From: Oculatellaceae cyanobacterium bins.114
GTDB lineage: Bacteria > Cyanobacteriota > Cyanobacteriia > Elainellales > Elainellaceae
Direction of reading: 5' to 3'
DNA: 37,768 bases
Assembly (NCBI GenBank): GCA_033764315.1
Contig: JANRJA010000251.1
Coordinates: forward strand, 1-37,768
Part shown: positions 25,570 to 35,239 of the stretch, piece by piece
Layout of the letters: the number at the start of each line of letters is the position of its first letter
Numbering within the stretch: position 1 is the first letter of the stretch
Translations under genes and position numbers: made by a program
Notes under the pieces: model-generated
What the model was told of the DNA's origin: nothing
The model's input: the letters and a program-made list of their open reading frames with translations, nothing else
Databases searched by the model: none

Positions 25570-26433
25570 TTAGAGCATAGGCGCAATGGCAGGTGAGAGA
25601 TGCCGTTCTAGCCAGTTCTCCAAATCTGCTAGAACCACTTGATGATCTAAATCATCAAATAATTCATGATAAGCGTCGGGGTACTCGTGCTGCTCTTTGT
25701 CGAGACATCCCGCCTGTTCAAAAAAACGTCGTCCCCCGTCGGGCAGGGCAACGCGATCGCTCCCTCCTTGCAAGATCAATAGCGGCAACTGCCAATCAGT
25801 TGCATGAGCGTGAACCCATGCCACTGTTGTCAAAAACTCTGTGCCAAAGCGAGCCGTTACTTGAGAATGGCGCAGCGGATCAGTGCGATATCTCTCGACG
25901 ATCGCCGGATCGCGTGCTCCCAGGTCAGACCTTAACCCGGTGCTGAGACTAAATCGAGGGTAAATGTTTGAAAGCAACTGCCCCAACCCAATCTTGATGG
26001 GTGAAACGCCCGTCGAACCAATAATGGGAGCCGATATAATCACCCCTTGTAGAGTTTTTGCTTGTTGAGGACAACGCAAGCCATAGTCCAACACGACGAC
26101 AGCACCGACGCTGTGCCCTAACAAAAACACAGGACGCTCTGGTTGCTTTGTCTTGACCCACTGCACAAACAATCCCAAATCTTCTCGAAATTCTGACCAA
26201 GCGTTGATATACCCCCGTTGACCGAGCGATCGCCCATTGCCTCGTGCATCATACCCAAACACTGCATAGCCTTTGGGTACTAACGCTTGCACAACGTTGC
26301 CAAAGAGTCCACTATGACCCCCCATGCCGTGAGCGATCGCCAGCACCGCCCGCACGGGTGTCTCTGGATGCCAATATTGGTAATACAAACGAAGGTCATC
26401 GCTGCTCTGAAAGGTGCCTTCCTGGTAATACAT
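25570..26433 (-). CDS. Alpha/beta hydrolase (lysophospholipase/monoacylglycerol lipase-like)
   Basis: HGMGGH, DARGNGRS, GHSVG nucleophile elbow, GGSD, YHEL. Confidence 0.92.
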   Translation of the reverse strand: MYYQEGTFQSSDDLRLYYQYWHPETPVRAVLAIAHGMGGHSGLFGNVVQALVPKGYAVFGYDARGNGRSLGQRGYINAWSEFREDLGLFVQWVKTKQPERPVFLLGHSVGAVVVLDYGLRCPQQAKTLQGVIISAPIIGSTGVSPIKIGLGQLLSNIYPRFSLSTGLRSDLGARDPAIVERYRTDPLRHSQVTARFGTEFLTTVAWVHAHATDWQLPLLILQGGSDRVALPDGGRRFFEQAGCLDKEQHEYPDAYHELFDDLDHQVVLADLENWLERHLSPAIAPML

Positions 26434-26489
26434 TGGGAAATCTACGACACGTTGAAATTACTGATAGCAGTGTAAAAGAAATTGCAGGG

Positions 26490-26522
26490 AGATCTTCGGT
26501 TTTTGTGCAAAGCCGAAGATCT
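26490..26522. repeat. Hairpin resembling the family B core
   Basis: AGATCTTCGGTTTT-tgtgc-AAAGCCGAAGATCT. Confidence 0.6.
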
Positions 26523-26530
26523 GTTAAGTA

Positions 26531-26601
26531 CAAGACGCTATAACAGAGTCAGCAGAAAACCTGGGTGAGAGACTATGGCATGAGACAAAGCTTACAAAGA
26601 G
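26531..26601 (+). pseudogene. Relic copy of the Roco gene promoter and first codons
   Basis: 26531-26558 identical (28 bp) to 27367-27394; then GGGTGAGAG and ATG 26575 reading MA*DKAYKE, versus MVRDEAYQE in the intact gene. Confidence 0.8.
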
Positions 26602-26646
26602 CGTTGGGAGGATGATTCTTGCAGTTGAGTCAGTTGATGGGGAGAA

Positions 26647-26988
26647 TCAGGAACTCTGGGTGGGTAGCAAAGGCTCAATCATAGATAGTAGCTGAGGAAT
26701 ATCATCCTGAATTACATCCCAAATTTCATCCACTTCGACGCGATCGTACTGATGAGTAAGGATGTCTCGCATTCCAGCAATTTCTCGCCACGGGACTTGT
26801 GGATGCTGATTGCGGAAGTCAGCAGATAATCGCTTGACGGCTTCTCCAATAACGACGATTTGATAGAGAATGGCAGACTGCTTCTCCAGATTTACTGCCA
26901 GTTCTGGCTTCTCTAAGCCTTGGGCGAATTCCAGGATAAGCTGGGCAGATCTGGCAATATCCAATAGTGAAGCGTTATCTCGCAACAT
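26647..26988 (-). CDS. hepT: HEPN (DUF86) ribonuclease toxin, HepT-like
   Basis: IGEAVK, PWREIAGM and Rx4HxY motif RDILTHQY. Confidence 0.92.
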   Translation of the reverse strand: MLRDNASLLDIARSAQLILEFAQGLEKPELAVNLEKQSAILYQIVVIGEAVKRLSADFRNQHPQVPWREIAGMRDILTHQYDRVEVDEIWDVIQDDIPQLLSMIEPLLPTQSS

Positions 26989-27292
26989 AAATGACCTGAG
27001 CCGTTCCCAAAATCTCGTTGCGTCGAATCCAGTTATGGCTCGTTTCGACAGCGTGCTTGCTGACCAAATCTACTTCGCGCCCCAACATATCCTCCAACTC
27101 GTACTTCATCTTTACTAAGGTCAATAACCCGCGTTTCGCATCTGAAGCAAAAGTAATTAGAACATCAATATCGCTGTCAGGGCGAAAATCGTCTCGGAGG
27201 ACAGAACCAAACAGAGCAAGCTCACTCACCTTCCAACGTTGGCAGAATGCAACGAGCTTGTCTTCAGGAAGTTGAATGTTGAGCGTGAGCAT
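26975..27292 (-). CDS. mntA: Minimal nucleotidyltransferase antitoxin, MntA-like
   Basis: GSx10DxD motif (FGSVLRDDFRPDSDID) and GREVDLV; overlaps the HEPN gene by 14 nt. Confidence 0.92.
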   Translation of the reverse strand: MLTLNIQLPEDKLVAFCQRWKVSELALFGSVLRDDFRPDSDIDVLITFASDAKRGLLTLVKMKYELEDMLGREVDLVSKHAVETSHNWIRRNEILGTAQVIYVAR

Positions 27293-27366
27293 GATTTAGC
27301 CTCCCAAATTAGCAGGTGGTTCAGCTATTCTGCCTTTATTTTATGCCTTGGCTCGATTTACTAGAG

Positions 27367-27409
27367 CAAGACGCTATAACAGAGTCAGCAGAAATAGGGG
27401 TGAGAGCTT
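27367..27409 (+). promoter_or_regulatory. Putative promoter/5' UTR of the Roco gene
   Basis: TATAAC -10-like hexamer at 27375-27380 and purine-rich GGGGTGAGAG before the ATG; preserved in the duplicate copy. Confidence 0.5.
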
Positions 27410-30400
27410 ATGGTGCGAGACGAAGCCTATCAGGAAGCAGAACGACGGATTGAAGCAGCCCGCCGGGAGGGAGCTACAGAACTCGACCTCAGAAACCTAA
27501 AATTGACAGAGTTGCCTGAATCAATTAGTCAACTTAACAATCTGAAAAAACTTGATCTTGGTGGAGACTCTTGGAAAGATTCTAAAAACCAGCTGACGGA
27601 AGTGCCAGAGGCGATCGCATCCCTCACCCAGTTGCAAGAGCTTGATCTCTCCGGTAACAAATTGACAGAGTTATCAGAGGCGATCGCATCCCTCACCCAG
27701 TTGCAGTCGCTTGACCTCTCCAACAACCAATTGACGGAGTTGCCTGAGGTGATTACCTCTCTGACTCAGTTGCAATCACTTGATCTTGGAAAAAATCAGT
27801 TAGAAATCCTACCGAATTCCTTGACAAATCTGACGAAACTTACCGCCCTTCACCTCTGGAGAAATCCTCTTTCACTAGTCCCTAATATAATTTTTCACCT
27901 GAAAAGCTTGGTATCACTTCAACTAAATAGTATTGGACTGCATGAACTTTCATCAGAAATTGCACTGCTAGAGAATTTGGAATTTCTTCATCTATTCAAC
28001 AATGAACTAAGGAGGATACCACCAGAAATTGGTCAACTCAAGAAGTTGAAAGTGCTTGAAATTGGTGTTGAAATTGTAGGTGGCAATTTACTGAACAGTT
28101 TGCCGGAAGAAATTGGACTACTAAGCGAACTCGAATCACTAAGACTTGACAGAAATGAGCTGACTACACTTCCAAATTCACTTTCATATCTACATAAGCT
28201 GAAGACACTGAATCTTGCTAAGAATCCCCTTAATCCTGATGTTGCCGCTGCTTATAAACAAGGTATTGAAGCCGTCATGCAATACTTGCGGGCAAGATCA
28301 GCAGGAGAAGTGATGCTAAATGAAGCAAAGCTAATTTTGGTGGGCGAGGGTGAGGTAGGAAAAAGTTGTTTATTAGGGGCATTACGGAGAGATGAATGGG
28401 TTGATGGTCGTCCCACGACGCATGGAATTGAGATTAAACCTGTCATTGTTACTGCTCCTGACAGCGGAACGAAGATTACGCTGAATGGTTGGGATTTTGG
28501 GGGGCAGAGGGTTTACCGTCCAACCCATCAACTATTCTTTAGTTCATCAGCGGTTTATCTAGTAGTGTGGAAGCCACGGGAGGGGCCACAGCAGGGGTTT
28601 GTCAAAGAATGGATCACGCTGATCAAGCATCGAGAGCCCGATGCAAAAGTGCTGGTGGTGGCAACCCACGGTGGTCCCGGACAGCGACAACCGGATATCG
28701 ATCGACAGGAATTGATTGATCTGTTTGGCAACGATACCGTTGTTGATTTCTTTCACGTTGATAGTCTGCTGAGTACTGGGATTACCGAGTTGAGAGATGC
28801 GATTGCCAACACTGCCGCCAACTTACCCGGAATGGGTCGTCTTGTGCCTACTAAATGGCAACGCATTCGGGAGTTGTTGGAGGAGTCTGGCAAAACCTAT
28901 TTGCCTTACAACGAGATCATTGCCCTTTGTGAAGAACAAGGACTTGAAGGCTTCGCTGCCGAACTGTTTGTTCGTGTCTCTCACACCCTGGGATATTTGA
29001 TCCACTACCATTACGACCCCATCCTGCAAGATATTGTCATCCTCAAACCCGACTGGTTAGCCAAAGCCATCAGTTTTGTCCTGGATGATGAAACCACTCG
29101 TTGCCGTAACGGGTTGGTCGAGTTTGCCCACCTTAGCCAGTTGTGGAGCCATCCCCCCTTTGCAGGTGAAGAGGGTTATCCCAAAGCTCTCCATCCGGTA
29201 TTTCTGCGGTTGATGGAACGCTTCGATTTGTCTTACAAAGTTGTTCTTGATCCAGCGTCTAGAGAAGAAAGCACCACCAGCCTGATTGCTCAACTGGTGC
29301 CCGACAATCGCCCAGAGCAATTGCCCAATTGGGGCGAACAACCCGACGAGGGTGACAGACAACAGGTGCAAATCTGCCGGATTGTGGACGATCGCGGTCA
29401 GAGTGCCAATGCTGAAGGATTGTTCTATCAACTCATTGTGCGGCTCCACAAATACTCGCTAGGACGCAACAACTACGAAAACAGCATTCACTGGCAACGA
29501 GGGTTAATGCTCGACAACGACTACAACGGTCGCGCCTTGCTCGAACACATCGGCAATGATGTCAAAATCACCGTCCGAGCCGCCTATCCAGAAAGGTTTC
29601 TCGCTTATCTCACCGAAGAGGTGAAATGGCTGGTGGAGAGCTTTTGGGAAGGGTTGAACTGCAACATCATGGTGCCTTGTATTGCTCCCTGTGGCATGGA
29701 GACCCCCGGACATGGACTCTTTGAGGTACAAAAACTAATCGAAAGCAAAAAGAAAAATCGACCTGAATTTCCCTGCCCGATATCAGGTTGTGATGAGTGG
29801 CAAAACATTGACCAATTGCTAAATAATGCTCCTGCGGCACAGCCTACCGTCCAGGAAGTCTTAAGCGAGAAACTGACCGACGTACAGGAAACATTACAGG
29901 TCATTCGTAAAGAAATACGAGTTAAAGATCAGCGGGATCAACTACGATATCAAGACCTGAGCAAAAAGCAGCTTGCTACTATGAGCTTAGTTGATCAGCA
30001 ATTTGCTGATCTGATGCAGATGCTGACTGATGAAGCCAAAGATGGCCCACGTCTGTTTAGTTTCAAACCTGTTGATCCAAAATTCTTCGATCGCCCTAAA
30101 TGGATCAGCGAAAAGTTTCAACTCACCCTCTGGTGTGAACACTCGCGTAAACCTCTCCCGGCCCTCAATCCTCCGGGTAGCAAGCAGGGTGTTTACGTAT
30201 TAGAACTCAATCGTGAGTGGTTCACAAAAGCGGTTCCCTACTTCAAACTGCTGACTGGAACCTTGAGCCTAGTTTTACCTGTTGCCGCTTCAACAACTCA
30301 ATTCATGCTGGACGATGCGACCTACAAAGGCATTCAAGAGGAATTAGATCTGGGTCAAAAAAGCCTTGAATTTGGCATTAAAGGCAGTAATATGGCGATC

Positions 30401-30589
30401 GATTGGCAAACCAAACGGGACTCGCAGGAGTTTGAACAGGGTGAAGCCATTCGTGCTCAGGGTTCTATGCTACGAGAACTTCATGCCATGTTGAAGGAAA
30501 AAGACCCCAGCTTTGGTGGGTTGGTACAAGTGCAAAACAAACGCCGTGAGTTCCTCTGGGTTCATCCGCAGTTTGTCAATGAATACTAA
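27410..30589 (+). CDS. Roco protein: LRR-Roc GTPase-COR with Zn-ribbon-like, coiled-coil and uncharacterised C-terminal regions
   Basis: About 10 23-aa LRRs; P-loop GEGEVGKS, TTHGI, WDFGGQ, THQLFF; COR-type VILKPDWL. Confidence 0.93.
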   Translation: MVRDEAYQEAERRIEAARREGATELDLRNLKLTELPESISQLNNLKKLDLGGDSWKDSKNQLTEVPEAIASLTQLQELDLSGNKLTELSEAIASLTQLQSLDLSNNQLTELPEVITSLTQLQSLDLGKNQLEILPNSLTNLTKLTALHLWRNPLSLVPNIIFHLKSLVSLQLNSIGLHELSSEIALLENLEFLHLFNNELRRIPPEIGQLKKLKVLEIGVEIVGGNLLNSLPEEIGLLSELESLRLDRNELTTLPNSLSYLHKLKTLNLAKNPLNPDVAAAYKQGIEAVMQYLRARSAGEVMLNEAKLILVGEGEVGKSCLLGALRRDEWVDGRPTTHGIEIKPVIVTAPDSGTKITLNGWDFGGQRVYRPTHQLFFSSSAVYLVVWKPREGPQQGFVKEWITLIKHREPDAKVLVVATHGGPGQRQPDIDRQELIDLFGNDTVVDFFHVDSLLSTGITELRDAIANTAANLPGMGRLVPTKWQRIRELLEESGKTYLPYNEIIALCEEQGLEGFAAELFVRVSHTLGYLIHYHYDPILQDIVILKPDWLAKAISFVLDDETTRCRNGLVEFAHLSQLWSHPPFAGEEGYPKALHPVFLRLMERFDLSYKVVLDPASREESTTSLIAQLVPDNRPEQLPNWGEQPDEGDRQQVQICRIVDDRGQSANAEGLFYQLIVRLHKYSLGRNNYENSIHWQRGLMLDNDYNGRALLEHIGNDVKITVRAAYPERFLAYLTEEVKWLVESFWEGLNCNIMVPCIAPCGMETPGHGLFEVQKLIESKKKNRPEFPCPISGCDEWQNIDQLLNNAPAAQPTVQEVLSEKLTDVQETLQVIRKEIRVKDQRDQLRYQDLSKKQLATMSLVDQQFADLMQMLTDEAKDGPRLFSFKPVDPKFFDRPKWISEKFQLTLWCEHSRKPLPALNPPGSKQGVYVLELNREWFTKAVPYFKLLTGTLSLVLPVAASTTQFMLDDATYKGIQEELDLGQKSLEFGIKGSNMAIDWQTKRDSQEFEQGEAIRAQGSMLRELHAMLKEKDPSFGGLVQVQNKRREFLWVHPQFVNEY
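27593..27799 (+). repeat. Three tandem 69-bp LRR-coding repeats
   Basis: Units start at 27593, 27662 and 27731; units 1 and 2 share a 31-bp identical block containing HIP1 (27611, 27680). Confidence 0.9.
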
Positions 30590-30608
30590 AAATTAGGAGG
30601 GAAATTTC

Positions 30609-30983
30609 CTGAGTATTCATTCAGATGACCCCGCTATTGCCGCTCTCTACGAAGAAATTGGCAATCTCGTTATTCGTTTCCCACTATTACAATGCGAAGA
30701 ATGCGCCAACACTCTTAAACAATGGCTTAAACAACGTGGAATCCCTGGAAAACTCTGGCGGCTAACAACTCGCTATGATGGAGAAGACTTCATTCTTAGC
30801 GATCGCCTTGAACAGAAGGGTTGCTTTGAAACAATAACTGAAAACGGCGTCCATTACGGGGTTGAGGTATATGGAAAGATATTTGACAACCTTTCCAAAC
30901 AGGGACTGTTTCCAGACGATTGGGTTAAGGATTTTACATCTCTATCTAATGAATTTGATGTCGAAGTGATTGAAGAACTCTAG
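30609..30983 (+). CDS. Papain-fold toxin (Tox-PL-2-like), 124 aa, CTG start; absent from the ORF track
   Basis: AGGAGG at 30595-30600, 8 nt before CTG. Open frame (M)SIHSDDPAIAALYEEIGNLVIRFPLLQCEECANTLKQWLKQRGIPGKLWRL...FILSDRL...ITENGVHYGVEVYGKIFDNLSKQGLFPDDWVKDF...EEL*, with a Cys/His/Asp triad pattern. Confidence 0.85.
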   Translation: MSIHSDDPAIAALYEEIGNLVIRFPLLQCEECANTLKQWLKQRGIPGKLWRLTTRYDGEDFILSDRLEQKGCFETITENGVHYGVEVYGKIFDNLSKQGLFPDDWVKDFTSLSNEFDVEVIEEL

Positions 30984-31010
30984 AAGTTTGATGAGTGGAG
31001 CTAGTTAAGT

Positions 31011-31379
31011 ATGGGCACATTATTTGACTTACTTGAAAAAATTAAAGCTAAGCCAGGGCTTTATATAGGAACTGCCTCTATCACACATTTACGAATGTTC
31101 ATCGTTGGGTATCAATTTGCTCGCTCAGAAATGAGAATTGCCAATACCGATGCTGAAAGTGATTTTTATAAAAACTTTCAACCGTGGTTACAAAATCGCC
31201 TATCGATTCGCACTGTAAATGCTTGGGATAAAATTATTTTGCTGACGTGCATCGATGAAAAAGCTGCATTTGATTACTTCTTCCAGCTTTTAGAAGATTT
31301 TCTCCAGCGTGATAAGAGTCAGGATATTGACCCCATCTTGGTGGAATCATCCTCTAAAAACGTTGAACAAGCTGCATAG
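31011..31379 (+). CDS. Hypothetical protein, putative immunity/antitoxin partner of the papain-fold toxin
   Basis: 27 nt after the toxin gene; GGAG RBS; KPGLYIG, FQPWLQ and AFDYFFQLLEDF segments. Function inferred from position. Confidence 0.75.
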   Translation: MGTLFDLLEKIKAKPGLYIGTASITHLRMFIVGYQFARSEMRIANTDAESDFYKNFQPWLQNRLSIRTVNAWDKIILLTCIDEKAAFDYFFQLLEDFLQRDKSQDIDPILVESSSKNVEQAA

Positions 31380-31455
31380 AAGGAACGTTAGAATTAAATG
31401 AATCTATTCACATATCGCCCCCCGATCGCACCCTTTTTTTTCAAGGAGTCGGGCT

Positions 31456-31809
31456 ATGCGTCAATCAAAAGTTCAATCAATTATTCAACGCCGTTTGTTA
31501 GGAATCGCGATCGCCACTTCGCTAACTCCCACCATCCTTGTGTCACCCAGTTTTGCCTTGTCGATTTCGCCTCAAGCCTTGTCTCAAATCAACGCTGCAC
31601 TCAACTATCCCAATGCCTCACAGCGATTTTTTGAAGAGGGACAGGAGCGGTTTGAGGACGAAGTTCAGCAACTCCAGGAACCTGCTACCAATGCAACTGA
31701 GCCACTGCAAGTGGACGAAGACTTACCAGACACACTAAACCAGCAACGCTTGCAACTTGAACAACCTGATGAGCGATCGCACGACAGAAGAGAGTCAGGA
31801 AGTCTATGA
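31456..31809 (+). CDS. Hypothetical exported protein
   Basis: AAGGAG RBS, signal-peptide-like N-terminus (SFA|L), SQRFFEEGQERFEDE segment. Confidence 0.7.
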   Translation: MRQSKVQSIIQRRLLGIAIATSLTPTILVSPSFALSISPQALSQINAALNYPNASQRFFEEGQERFEDEVQQLQEPATNATEPLQVDEDLPDTLNQQRLQLEQPDERSHDRRESGSL

Positions 31810-31922
31810 ATCTTGAATTATGAGTTTTGAATTTTGAGTTGAGGTATCAATTTAGAATTCAAAACTCATACCTCCAAACTCATACCTCCAAACTCATAAC
31901 TTAACTCCAAACTCATAACTCC
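31805..31922. repeat. Short tandem (7/14-nt) repeat tract with inverted arms between convergent genes
   Basis: TATGAGTTTTGAATT (31819-31833) / AATTCAAAACTCATA (31856-31870); repeated AAACTCATA(C/A)CT. Confidence 0.8.
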
Positions 31923-31927
31923 CTCTC

Positions 31928-32746
31928 CTACACTGCCACCTGCAACATCGGAGCACGCTTGGCTAGATCAAACTTGTAGCCATTTGGCAGAATGTGTAGC
32001 TTTGCCCCACAAATGGCCAGGTTCTCATCCCGCAGCAACTCATCCACGTTGGTATGGGTGATATTGGCTACATCAATCACCGTCACCGCACCCCTGCCAA
32101 TCACCTCGACCTCTGCTCCATTAATGGCGATCGCGGTGTCTTCATCAATGCCAAACCCCAAAATAGCGGGCTGTTGCGCTAAAGCTGAGATCAAACGCCC
32201 CAATCGTCCACGTTGAGCAAAATGCTGATCAATCACGACTCCTGGCAAAAACCCCATCCCTGGCCCCATTGTCACCACTTCCATCCGGGGATTCGTTTCT
32301 GACTCCCCTTCGACAATCATCACATCTGGCATCATGGCCGCACCTGCACTGGTTCCAGCAATCACAATTCCCTGCTGAAACCGCTCGTGCAATTTGGCAT
32401 CCAGTTCAGTGTCTTTGAGATATTCGGTGATGCGGGCTTGATTGCCACCTGTAAAAAACACGCCTGTTGCCTGATCAATCTTGGCTAACGCATCAGTATT
32501 GCTGGCATCTTCGCGTCGTTCGGTGTCAACTACTTTGACATTCTCTACGCCCAATCGCTCAAATGCTCGAATGTAATCAGAGCCGACTTCCCCTGGCAAC
32601 TCAGTCGCTACAGTCATCACGACAACTTGGGCTTGCAATCCACCTGCCCGTCGCACAAACTCTCGCAGAACCTTGCATTCCCCTTCTTTTTCCTCTGCTC
32701 CACCGATAATTACTAACTGACCATGAGACTCATCTAAAGCTGCCAT
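31928..32746 (-). CDS. cphB2: Cyanophycinase (CphB2-type by context)
   Basis: IIGGAE, TGGNQ, GTSAG, DQHFAQRGR, GIDEDT; divergent from cphA2. Confidence 0.92.
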   Translation of the reverse strand: MAALDESHGQLVIIGGAEEKEGECKVLREFVRRAGGLQAQVVVMTVATELPGEVGSDYIRAFERLGVENVKVVDTERREDASNTDALAKIDQATGVFFTGGNQARITEYLKDTELDAKLHERFQQGIVIAGTSAGAAMMPDVMIVEGESETNPRMEVVTMGPGMGFLPGVVIDQHFAQRGRLGRLISALAQQPAILGFGIDEDTAIAINGAEVEVIGRGAVTVIDVANITHTNVDELLRDENLAICGAKLHILPNGYKFDLAKRAPMLQVAV

Positions 32747-32842
32747 ATCAATTTCTGTACTTTTTTAATTCTATTTCCACTCAATCACGGCAGCAGTTAA
32801 GGCTTAACGTCCCTTAGATAGATTTAAATCAGAGCGATAGAC

Positions 32843-32886
32843 AGAGGGCAGAGCGACGATGAGATGACATCTCACTCTTACCCTCT
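32843..32886. terminator. Imperfect hairpin between the small ORF and cphB2
   Basis: AGAGGG...TGAGATG-a-CATCTCA...CCCTCT. Confidence 0.35.
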
Positions 32887-32899
32887 TGATTCCTTGTTT

Positions 32900-33118
32900 T
32901 TACAAAACGGCTTGCTCATCTAATTGATTGAGCAAAATTAGTGTTCTTAATAGATTTTGGGCGTATTCCAGATTCAAATGTCTGGGTTTGCCTTTATAAA
33001 CAATTTGGTATTCTCCTTCGTATTCACCATCTCCATAACCAGAAATAAGTTTTTGATGAAACGCTTCTTCAGCCAGGTGTTGCACAGATTCTCTTAGAGC
33101 AGCTTGAGTCGTATTCAT
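32900..33118 (-). CDS. Small hypothetical protein (72 aa) in the cph2 cluster
   Basis: AGGAG RBS then ATG 33118; MNTTQAALRESVQHLAEEAFHQKLISGYGDGEY... Confidence 0.7.
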   Translation of the reverse strand: MNTTQAALRESVQHLAEEAFHQKLISGYGDGEYEGEYQIVYKGKPRHLNLEYAQNLLRTLILLNQLDEQAVL

Positions 33119-33328
33119 GAGGCTGTCTCCTACATATGTTTTGTTTCTTATTAGATCTGTTATAGAAACATAATGGCTTAACTTCAACCTTCGAAGGTTG
33201 TAATACTTTGCGAGAGAAAACCTGCTTTATGAGCAGTTTGGAACCCTTTAAAGCGTTGTCTCTAGATAGAGGAAGCAAGTTAGCGATCGCGCTAAACTCA
33301 GGCTTGAACTGAACACAAATTTAAGGTC

Positions 33329-35239
33329 ATGGTGCTAGAACAAAGCTCCAATACATACAGCGTGAATGCCCGCAAAACGGATGCATTTGACGTTTTCAAT
33401 TGCAATACGTACATCGGTTCAAATCCATATTTAGATGCAGCTGCATTCGTGTTTGATGTTGCACTAACTGGATACCGTGAACCGCTGCCAATTGAAGAAT
33501 ATGTGGCTGTTATTGGCGATCGCTATCCTCAGTTGCGTGATCACGTCTTTGATTCTTATGCTCATTTGTTTGCTCAAACAGCCCTCGAAGTCAGCAAATT
33601 AGAGATGGACTTGCACTTTCACCGCTATAGCTTGCATGCTTTAGAAGGTCGCATCCGCATTGCCGTACAAGCGTTGCACGGGCGCACTAGTCGGGCTGTG
33701 GTCTATTGTGTGTGGGATTGGTTTGAGGCAATTACAAAGGATCAATCCTTTAACCTAGATGATCAGATCGAAGTCATGCAGGGCATGTTTCGGCAATCGG
33801 TCTATGGCGGCCCAACAGTGTATGCATTGCTGAGAACTGCTTATGAAAAGGGCATTCCCACCTTTTATTTGTGGGATGAAGGATTAATGCAATATGGCTA
33901 TGGCAAAAAACAAGTCCGGGGAGTTGCCACAACATTTGACGGTGATAGTCATCTAGATTCTGATTTCACCACCCGCAAGGATGACTGCAAAGCCTTTCTT
34001 AGTACATTAGGGTTTCCGGTTCCCAGAGGAGAGATTGTCATCTCCGTAGATGAGGCCACTTCCGCGGCGCGACGAGTTGGCTATCCGGTTGCAATTAAGC
34101 CTGTGGTAGGGCACAAAGGACATGGAGTAACCACTGATATTCAAGATGCCGATAGCATTGAGATTGCGTTTGAACGGGCAGTCGAGGCGATCGCAGAGAG
34201 TGACCCCATTCGCGTCATTGTCGAGCAAAGCGTTACTGGGTCGGACTACCGCTTGCTCTGTGTTAACGGTCGCTTTGTCGCCGCAACTGAGCGTCGTCCA
34301 GCGTTTGTGGTCGGAGATGGAGACTCGACCATTGAGGAGTTGATTAACCAAGAAAACCGTCAGCTTGCTCGGACTGACACCCCCACATCTCCTTTGGGTA
34401 AGATCCGCATTGATGAGGCAATGGAGAACTACCTGGATGAGCAAGGATTATCATTGGATAGCATCATAGAGAGCGATCGCACGGTTTATCTCCGCAAGGT
34501 TGCCAACCTCTCCGCCGGGGGATTGAGCATTGATGCCACTGCAACGGTTCACCCTGACAACATCATCCTGGCACAAGATATTGCTCAACACTTTCGCCTG
34601 ACCTGTCTGGGCATTGACGTGATTGCCCGTGATTTAACTCGCTCTTGGAAAGACGGCAACTTCGGTATTTTAGAAATCAATGCGGCTCCGGGCATCTATA
34701 TGCACTTAAAGCCTGCTCAAGGAGACAGCATTGATGTGCCTTCTGCCATTCTCGGCACGTTTTTTGAATCGGGAGCAGCGGCACGCATTCCCATCATTAC
34801 CTTTAACCGGGTTTCAGTTTCAGAACTGCAAGAAACCATCGACCATATCTTGTTTCAACACCCCACTTGGACAATTGGGGCAGTGTGTCGAGATGGCGTG
34901 TTTGTTAACCGCGCCGAAAAAGTGTTACATCCTGACTACAATATCAATGTGCAAAATCTCGTCCGCAACCCCAAACTGGATGTCCTAATTGTGGAATATG
35001 CAGACAGCCTCTTAGAACGAGACGGCATGTTTTACTACGGCAGCGATATTGTCGTACTTAACAATCCTACAGAGACTGAGTTGACCCTTACCCGCGATGT
35101 CTTTGAACATTCCACCATTGTTGTCAAAGAAGGAGACACGGTCTCTATTCGTCGTCAGGGCTTAATGGAGCAATATCGCTTGGGTGGCTCAGAACCCTTT
35201 CAACGGGTTTATCTCAAAGAGCTTGCCACAATTCTATAA
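33329..35239 (+). CDS. cphA2: Cyanophycin synthetase 2 (beta-Asp-Arg dipeptide polymerase)
   Basis: 636 aa; YGGPT, ATP-grasp motifs (KPVVGHKGHGV, DYRLL, ANLSAGG, EINAAPG), truncated Mur-like C-terminus starting RIPII. Confidence 0.92.
   Translation: MVLEQSSNTYSVNARKTDAFDVFNCNTYIGSNPYLDAAAFVFDVALTGYREPLPIEEYVAVIGDRYPQLRDHVFDSYAHLFAQTALEVSKLEMDLHFHRYSLHALEGRIRIAVQALHGRTSRAVVYCVWDWFEAITKDQSFNLDDQIEVMQGMFRQSVYGGPTVYALLRTAYEKGIPTFYLWDEGLMQYGYGKKQVRGVATTFDGDSHLDSDFTTRKDDCKAFLSTLGFPVPRGEIVISVDEATSAARRVGYPVAIKPVVGHKGHGVTTDIQDADSIEIAFERAVEAIAESDPIRVIVEQSVTGSDYRLLCVNGRFVAATERRPAFVVGDGDSTIEELINQENRQLARTDTPTSPLGKIRIDEAMENYLDEQGLSLDSIIESDRTVYLRKVANLSAGGLSIDATATVHPDNIILAQDIAQHFRLTCLGIDVIARDLTRSWKDGNFGILEINAAPGIYMHLKPAQGDSIDVPSAILGTFFESGAAARIPIITFNRVSVSELQETIDHILFQHPTWTIGAVCRDGVFVNRAEKVLHPDYNINVQNLVRNPKLDVLIVEYADSLLERDGMFYYGSDIVVLNNPTETELTLTRDVFEHSTIVVKEGDTVSIRRQGLMEQYRLGGSEPFQRVYLKELATIL

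Follow-up and report, generated by a model that had tools for sequence, protein, structure and literature searches.

A MntA-HepT pair, a Roco gene and a Tox-PL-2 cassette adjoin in one cyanobacterial genome, probably as three independent modules

The window, the whole 37,768-nucleotide stretch of DNA analysed here, is contig C198 (JANRJA010000251.1) of Oculatellaceae cyanobacterium bins.114, whose 6.6-Mb genome is assembled in 251 contigs; by protein name, the relatives of the window proteins belong to filamentous cyanobacteria. Across 4.85 kb of the window lie, in order, a minus-strand toxin-antitoxin (TA) pair, hepT-mntA (26647–27292), and three plus-strand genes, which encode a Roco protein with leucine-rich repeats (LRR) and Roc and COR domains, a Tox-PL-2 papain-fold toxin, and a 122-aa partner (Table 1). 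The original prediction had combined these four elements into a candidate defence locus with the LRR as sensor, Roc-COR as switch and the toxin as effector, while calling an independent accumulation of modules equally live. All four elements are present and, save the partner, confirmed by Pfam. The layout also holds as described: the TA pair is directly upstream of and divergent from the Roco gene, with 117 nt between mntA and Roco, while the Roco, toxin and partner genes are co-directional with gaps of 19 nt and 27 nt. A terminator consensus scan of 26300–32000 gave three sites against 5.2 expected from shuffles, none of them between these three genes, and an RNA fold of 31376–31450, 3′ of the partner gene, gave no terminator-like hairpin (z +2.0). 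The block is likewise embedded among metabolic genes, as Pfam assigns an alpha/beta hydrolase, an acyltransferase, an S51 cyanophycinase-like peptidase and an ATP-grasp protein to its flanks. Nevertheless, our analysis indicates that the stretch probably comprises three independent modules that occur together only in this strain, and that it most likely does not represent a novel immune system.

Table 1. Coordinates of the features of the hepT-mntA, Roco and Tox-PL-2 locus in the window
Feature	Position	Strand	Evidence
Direct-repeat copy A, duplicate of the Roco leader/start just past the hepT 3′ end	26531–26594	.	sequence comparison
hepT, predicted HEPN-type RNase toxin, 113 aa	26647–26988	-	Pfam PF01934 E 3.5e-25
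mntA, predicted minimal nucleotidyltransferase antitoxin, 105 aa	26975–27292	-	Pfam PF01909 E 2.8e-18; PADLOC PDC-S09 E 1.2e-23
Direct-repeat copy B, holds the Roco ATG at 27410	27367–27429	.	sequence comparison
Roco protein, 1059 aa	27410–30589	+	Pfam
Roco LRR, ~aa 30–290	27497–28279	+	Pfam
Roco Roc GTPase, aa 307–420	28328–28669	+	PF08477 E 3.4e-21
Roco COR-A, aa 480–630	28847–29299	+	PF16095 E 6e-33
Roco COR-B, aa 669–806	29414–29827	+	PF25497 E 3.5e-28
Roco conserved 250-aa C-terminal domain, aa 810–1059	29837–30586	+	without Pfam/NCBIfam annotation
AGGAGG Shine-Dalgarno-like hexamer, 8 nt before CTG 30609	30595–30600	+	read from sequence
Tox-PL-2 gene, predicted papain-fold toxin, 124 aa from CTG	30609–30983	+	PF15643 E 1e-31
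Conserved toxin residues Cys29; His82; Asp93-Asn94	30693–30695; 30852–30854; 30885–30890	+	alignment
Partner, 122 aa, all-alpha model, probably Imm73-like	31011–31379	+	follows toxin; AF2 helices only

The proposed immune operon, in which the LRRs would sense, Roc-COR would switch, Tox-PL-2 would be released or activated as the effector and the partner would restrain it, draws on the tight co-directional layout, on a toxin without its own start codon and on the rare cyanobacterial Roc-COR modules that are included among NTPase conflict systems in the pertinent sections of Kaur et al. 2020 (PMC7159879). The neighbourhoods of the same genes elsewhere argue against it. We collected 76 loci of the toxin–partner cassette, comprising two from this genome, 14 from close relatives and 60 chosen in order of rank from the PF15643 matches, with very-short-contig matches and the lowest-scoring fragments excluded. 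Roc or COR domains lie upstream of the cassette in none of the 74 foreign loci. The scan comprised 41 neighbouring open reading frames (ORFs) of the 14 close loci, 111 of the 113 upstream ORFs listed for the 60 others (the remaining two encode the toxin and the partner of a tandem cassette in L066), and the N-terminal regions of three WD40 proteins. In the reverse direction, no match to the hidden Markov model (HMM) of the toxin or the partner is present in the 36 Roco-orthologue loci (13 with wide flanks and 23 others, some of them the same place reached by two routes), and four genomes with both a Roco orthologue and Tox-PL-2 (G206, G320, G316 and G080) carry them at different places. Adjacency of the Roco and toxin genes is thus found only in this genome, one of the outcomes that the original prediction had named as speaking against itself.

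Other comparisons point the same way. The Roco C-terminal domain, the part of the Roco protein that was compared, gave hhalign probabilities of 0.8% with the partner and 0.07% with the toxin, and no common adaptor domain was found. The Roco family is highly conserved (over the C-terminal domain, the 119 relatives listed besides the window's own protein show 64–94% identity), unlike a fast-diversifying sensor. In PADLOC-DB 2.0, no model matches the Roco protein or the toxin, and MNT is the only locus protein with a meaningful match (PDC-S09); a full-text literature search gave no Roco–toxin defence system among its matches. We therefore consider a single immune operon very unlikely, and the evidence favours the accumulation of independent modules.

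Several points weigh against the independence of the modules. The 19-nt gap, the lack of a terminator-like site and the lost toxin start are compatible with Roco-tied expression. In the other 60 cassette loci, the scan was confined to the one or two ORFs, each 85 aa or longer, that lie closest on the upstream side, and two loci (L077 and L091) gave no scannable upstream ORF. Large signalling proteins also precede the cassette in a few other loci, with co-directional kinase-WD40 proteins upstream of two foreign cassettes (L088 and L097) and TPR ORFs at a third (L090). The second Tox-PL-2 gene of this genome, on contig C47 and followed by a partner homologue of 47% identity, lies 215 nt after an AAA_35-TPR gene, so that both own cassettes follow a repeat-bearing NTPase; this, together with the tight spacing, keeps the immune operon alive, although no cassette lies within 4.5 kb in any of the 80 loci of AAA_35 relatives. 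The only genome of the same family, G017, is almost without synteny, with matches to just the cyanophycinase-like gene and one other protein, and because synteny is nearly nil and no close relative is available for comparison, no empty site can be defined. Finally, binding of the partner to the toxin, and the resulting inhibition, are an inference of ours.

The distribution of the cassette is that of an autonomous element. A word-based search returned 138 stand-alone relatives of the toxin, the 120 listed being 65–89% identical and all those with named sources cyanobacterial, and PF15643 occurs in 50 of 401 cyanobacterial genomes drawn from across the phylum, a single genome having as many as six matches. 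Of the 80 toxin HMM matches in the 76 loci, 78 are directly followed by a partner homologue, and at the remaining two (L060 and L109) the partner frame overlaps the toxin end. The genes beside the cassette vary widely. Housekeeping genes upstream include those for pyruvate:ferredoxin oxidoreductase (three loci), fatty-acid desaturase (five) and ketoacyl synthase (two), and further housekeeping neighbours include EPSP synthase, RecJ, ABC transporters, GUN4, UDG, PPDK and FtsH, while TA and restriction-modification neighbours comprise Phd, Barstar, PIN, ParE, BrnT/A, Uma2, GmrSD and methylase/endonuclease pairs. In 45 of 77 cases the closest ORF on the upstream side has the same direction as the cassette, and in 28 of 77 it ends no more than 150 nt away; the cassette thus usually stands a short distance behind a gene unrelated to it. 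Moreover, in six foreign loci (L016, L018, L019, L020, L062 and L084) the toxin is broken or truncated and the partner intact, a pattern expected of toxin–immunity pairs.

Five of the 14 close loci, all from Nostocales (L009, L011, L013, L014 and L016), place the cassette beside genes of an extracellular contractile injection system (eCIS), namely Pvc16_N, an AAA+ ATPase, a tape measure protein and eCIS_core (DUF4157) proteins. There, the cassette stands at the end of the eCIS locus, just after the eCIS_core proteins, and the five are probably one orthologous locus. HMMER, run in full against 1.84 billion representatives, yielded 877 proteins at E <= 0.001, of which 150 were listed, and also returned longer Tox-PL-2 proteins that the word-based search had not given. 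In the 41 of at least 282 aa among the 150 listed, all of which we scanned, Tox-PL-2 is invariably near the C-terminus; the co-occurring domains are eCIS_core (four proteins), PT-HINT (four), RHS (two), DUF637, DUF6443 and TSP3 (one each), 28 proteins have no other family at E <= 1e-6, and none is fused to an NTPase. A cyanobacterium (L170) likewise encodes an RHS-Tox-PL-2 protein, with a small gene behind it. Judged by domain order, C-terminal Tox-PL-2 on RHS, PT-HINT or eCIS_core is the classic predicted architecture of a delivered polymorphic toxin. This architecture connects the free-standing cassettes that follow eCIS_core genes with the diversification of eCIS cargo, and suggests that the cassettes at eCIS loci are spare toxin cassettes for that cargo. 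The stand-alone cassette is, in sum, common in cyanobacteria, almost always paired, and tied to eCIS cargo by both fusion and neighbourhood.

Two observations stand apart. A Roco–toxin fusion by frameshift was considered and dropped, as no fused form occurs among the 41 longer proteins. The C47 cluster (L006, 6429–12280) consists of TIR-AAA_35 in two ORFs, AAA_35-TPR (898 aa), Tox-PL-2, the partner homologue and an MNT fragment, and a Uma2 gene lies near this conflict-gene cluster.

The toxin of the window matches PF15643 with 109.6 bits against a cut-off of 25, over profile positions 3–103 of 103. Residues C29, H82, D93 and N94 are invariant across 60 toxin sequences, and the window toxin carries N79-G-V-H82; it thereby displays the motif "C, NxxH, DN" given for Tox-PL-2 in the part of Zhang et al. 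2012 (PMC3482391) that treats this family. Its conserved residues predict a small papain-fold Cys-His-Asp enzyme, either a peptidase or transglutaminase-like; PDB sequence searches with the toxin profile gave nothing significant. The frame is a stand-alone one of 125 codons that opens after an in-frame TAG (30594–30596), and is not the tip of a long secreted polymorphic toxin. No ATG, GTG or TTG occurs in frame 5′ of the catalytic Cys, which is why the gene is missing from the program-made ORF list, and the GTG at which close homologues start ("(M/V)LFL...") is GGA in the window. The only plausible starts are CTG 30609 and ATT 30615. A canonical start is also missing in three other full-length toxin copies (L008, L009 and L095), suggesting that non-canonical starts are tolerated. 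Weak initiation at CTG or ATT and a silent toxin beside a working orphan immunity gene are, in our judgement, about evenly balanced.

A variant nested within the three-module explanation holds that the start-less toxin is dead and that the partner serves as orphan immunity against Tox-PL-2 delivered by RHS or eCIS systems of neighbour cells. The absence of ATG, GTG and TTG, with GGA in place of the homologues' GTG, the six foreign loci with damaged toxins beside intact partners, the position of Tox-PL-2 at the C-terminal tip of delivered toxins and the five of the 14 closest cassettes behind eCIS_core genes are all consistent with it. It is, however, at odds with a 125-codon frame that is intact and keeps every catalytic residue, with 73–84% identity to its relatives in the 12 loci where the match spans most of the frame, with the strong AGGAGG ahead of the CTG and with the three full-length copies that lack a canonical start as well. 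We regard this variant as possible but tentative.

The partner is most likely, by analogy, an Imm73-like immunity protein. Where Zhang et al. 2012 describe the immunity partner of Tox-PL-2, the toxin is paired with Imm73, which is all-alpha, occurs in cyanobacteria and sometimes forms two or three tandem copies in one polypeptide. Consistent with this description, the AlphaFold 2 (AF2) model of the partner consists of helices only (pLDDT 87.7), and one foreign locus (L109) encodes two partner domains in a single 304-aa frame. The partner matches no family in Pfam or NCBIfam even at E up to 5, the presence of an Imm73 model in either library being unconfirmed, and in PADLOC it reaches only PDC-M38B at E 0.0026, which is not meaningful. 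With the partner model, Foldseek against the PDB gave nothing at E <= 0.001, and the best Z of VIA-align wide, 5.1, is noise for helical bundles; PDB sequence searches with the partner profile gave nothing significant, and the ESM Atlas returned unnamed "hypothetical" clusters only. The partner family therefore offers a confident all-alpha model with no solved relative. A complex prediction for toxin and partner scored 0.28 against a mark of 0.32 and counts neither for nor against binding. Residues 4–30 of the partner (31011–31100), with the consensus ..KIKxRPGMYLG.., resemble the N-terminal "RKRPGMYIG" of DNA gyrase B; with E 0.42 and a Foldseek probability of 0.15, the likeness falls short of significance and may be chance.

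The Roco gene belongs, on present evidence, to a large and ordinary family. Roc, COR-A and COR-B follow one another in the order that defines a Roco protein, and the sequences GEGEVGKS and DFGGQ are, we presume, the P-loop and switch II. In the Roc G4 region (28640–28670), the protein reads T-H-G-G, with the Asp absent, at the place where we take the guanine-specificity motif N/T-K/H-x-D to be expected. The C-terminal domain has 1045 homologues at E <= 0.001; COR domains are present in all 120 of those listed, and Roc and LRR families in most. Since the listed homologues carry COR and are well conserved, the Roco gene is an ordinary member of a large cyanobacterial Roco family. The C-terminal domain contains invariant TLWCEH and GFGGL-type motifs and the hydrophobic stretch LTGTLSLVLPVAAS; its AF2 model is poor (pLDDT 54) and unfit for fold searches. 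Of 400 other genomes sampled, 13 have orthologues, recognised by this domain at 58–81% identity, and there the neighbours are GST, hydantoinase A/B, a methyltransferase, patatin, AbiEii, PIN and BrnA. The output of the Roco protein is probably its own C-terminal domain, and a Roco family of more than 1000 members with a common, conserved and uncharacterised C-terminal domain is a useful side result.

In the TA pair, the MNT gene comes first and the HEPN gene second, and the two overlap by 14 nt. The proteins score 35.8 bits (HepT_toxin) and 47.7 bits (MntA_antitoxin) with the NCBIfam equivalogs, under cut-offs of 60, which by sequence places them in the broader families, outside the curated equivalogs. 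HepT contains RDILTH, which presumably represents the Rx4H motif. In type VII TA systems, MntA adenylylates HepT. A direct repeat of about 64 bp flanks the pair, with 28 nt 100% identical (27367–27394) and the next 32 nt 78% identical (27398–27429); copy A reads ATG-GCA-TGA. A duplicated Roco leader thus encloses the 836-bp hepT-mntA unit, as is characteristic of an insertion.

A further explanation treats MntA-HepT and Roco as one functional unit, in which the TA pair regulates or guards the Roco gene and the cassette was added later. Its basis is a Scytolyngbya contig (L168, 3752–4752) that shares hepT-mntA, the leader and the 3′ end of the Roco gene with the window at 83–84% DNA identity. 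Specifically, the DNA of this contig is 84% identical to 26663–27394 and then directly to 30338–30589, so that only the final 252 bp remain at its junction from a Roco gene that is otherwise almost wholly deleted; in addition, its hepT has an in-frame stop and its mntA is frameshifted, which is hard to reconcile with a working unit. The likeness to the window stops at the Roco stop codon, and other genes, with no cassette, lie beyond. The TA–Roco junction thus predates the strain, and the cassette lies outside the common block. A HepT or MntA protein match is absent from all 35 remaining Roco-orthologue loci, other Roco orthologues have the unrelated TA genes AbiEii, PIN and BrnA beside them, and the flanking duplication is an insertion signature. 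We consider a TA–Roco unit highly improbable, and return to three independent modules as the preferred explanation.

Farther downstream, a 117-aa ORF (31456–31809, plus strand) has a signal-peptide-like N-terminus, a Q/E-rich tail and no family match, and is followed at 31805–31922 by inverted repeats and tandem 14-nt repeats of the CTCCAAACTCATA type. At 31928–35239, the cyanophycinase-like S51 peptidase gene is divergent to that of the 636-aa ATP-grasp protein, and the two may be a pair for cyanophycin-type metabolism.

On the explanation by independent modules, the locus would have been assembled as follows. The MntA-HepT pair would have inserted just upstream of the Roco gene, duplicating about 64 bp of its leader and start, and would act as a type VII TA pair. 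The Roco protein would be an ordinary LRR-Roc-COR family member and a stand-alone GTP switch, with no fixed neighbours elsewhere. The third module would be an autonomous, mobile Tox-PL-2/immunity cassette of the polymorphic-toxin kind, whose all-alpha Imm73-like partner would neutralise the toxin by direct binding. Such a cassette often sits no more than 150 nt past the stop codon of a host gene on the same strand, whatever that gene does, and probably relies on read-through transcription from it. Here the host gene would be Roco, with which the cassette would be co-transcribed and through which it would be expressed, if at all. A bolder proposal is that polymorphic-toxin cassettes have been captured in this strain as outputs of NTPase sensors, with toxin expression or release slaved to the upstream sensor, namely the Roco GTPase for the start-less toxin gene and an AAA_35-TPR STAND protein for the second cassette. 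We think this improbable; if true, it would be an early, lineage-specific step from a mobile toxin–immunity pair toward a sensor–effector immune operon. More generally, tight spacing and a plausible sensor–switch–effector story are insufficient to call a defence system in cyanobacterial genomes, where small toxin–immunity and TA cassettes insert downstream of all sorts of genes.

Compared with known systems, the MNT-HEPN pair resembles MntA-HepT of type VII in its gene order and overlap and, as far as family matches go, in both Pfam families, and differs from curated MntA-HepT in that both proteins fall below the equivalog cut-offs. The Chlorobium tepidum Roco protein is a structural model for LRRK2. 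The window Roco protein shares its LRR-Roc-COR order, but adds the conserved 250-aa C-terminal domain and has no kinase or other known output domain. In the sections of Kaur et al. 2020 that bear on the matter, conflict systems rely on shared adaptor domains (EADs) and conserved neighbourhoods. Like the systems described there, the locus has a repeat-bearing NTPase adjoining a toxin-like gene in a multicellular-type cyanobacterium; unlike them, it has no common EAD (Roco C-terminal domain compared), no MoxR/vWA or other core parts, and no conserved adjacency. The likeness to eCIS cargo toxins is seen in the four of 41 longer proteins that fuse eCIS_core to C-terminal Tox-PL-2 and in the five of 14 closest cassettes that follow eCIS_core genes, whereas the window has no eCIS gene and the single eCIS_core match of the genome is on another contig (C75). 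The cassette compares most closely with the Tox-PL-2/Imm73 pairs, as characterised in the Tox-PL-2 part of Zhang et al. 2012, in its Pfam match, its C/NxxH/DN residues, its small all-alpha downstream gene, its cyanobacterial host and the tandem partner domains of L109; it departs from polymorphic Tox-PL-2 toxins in being a free-standing 124-aa protein without a trafficking or repeat region or a canonical start. Each part of the locus therefore belongs to a kind already described: a Tox-PL-2/Imm73-type pair, an MNT-HEPN TA pair and a bacterial Roco protein.

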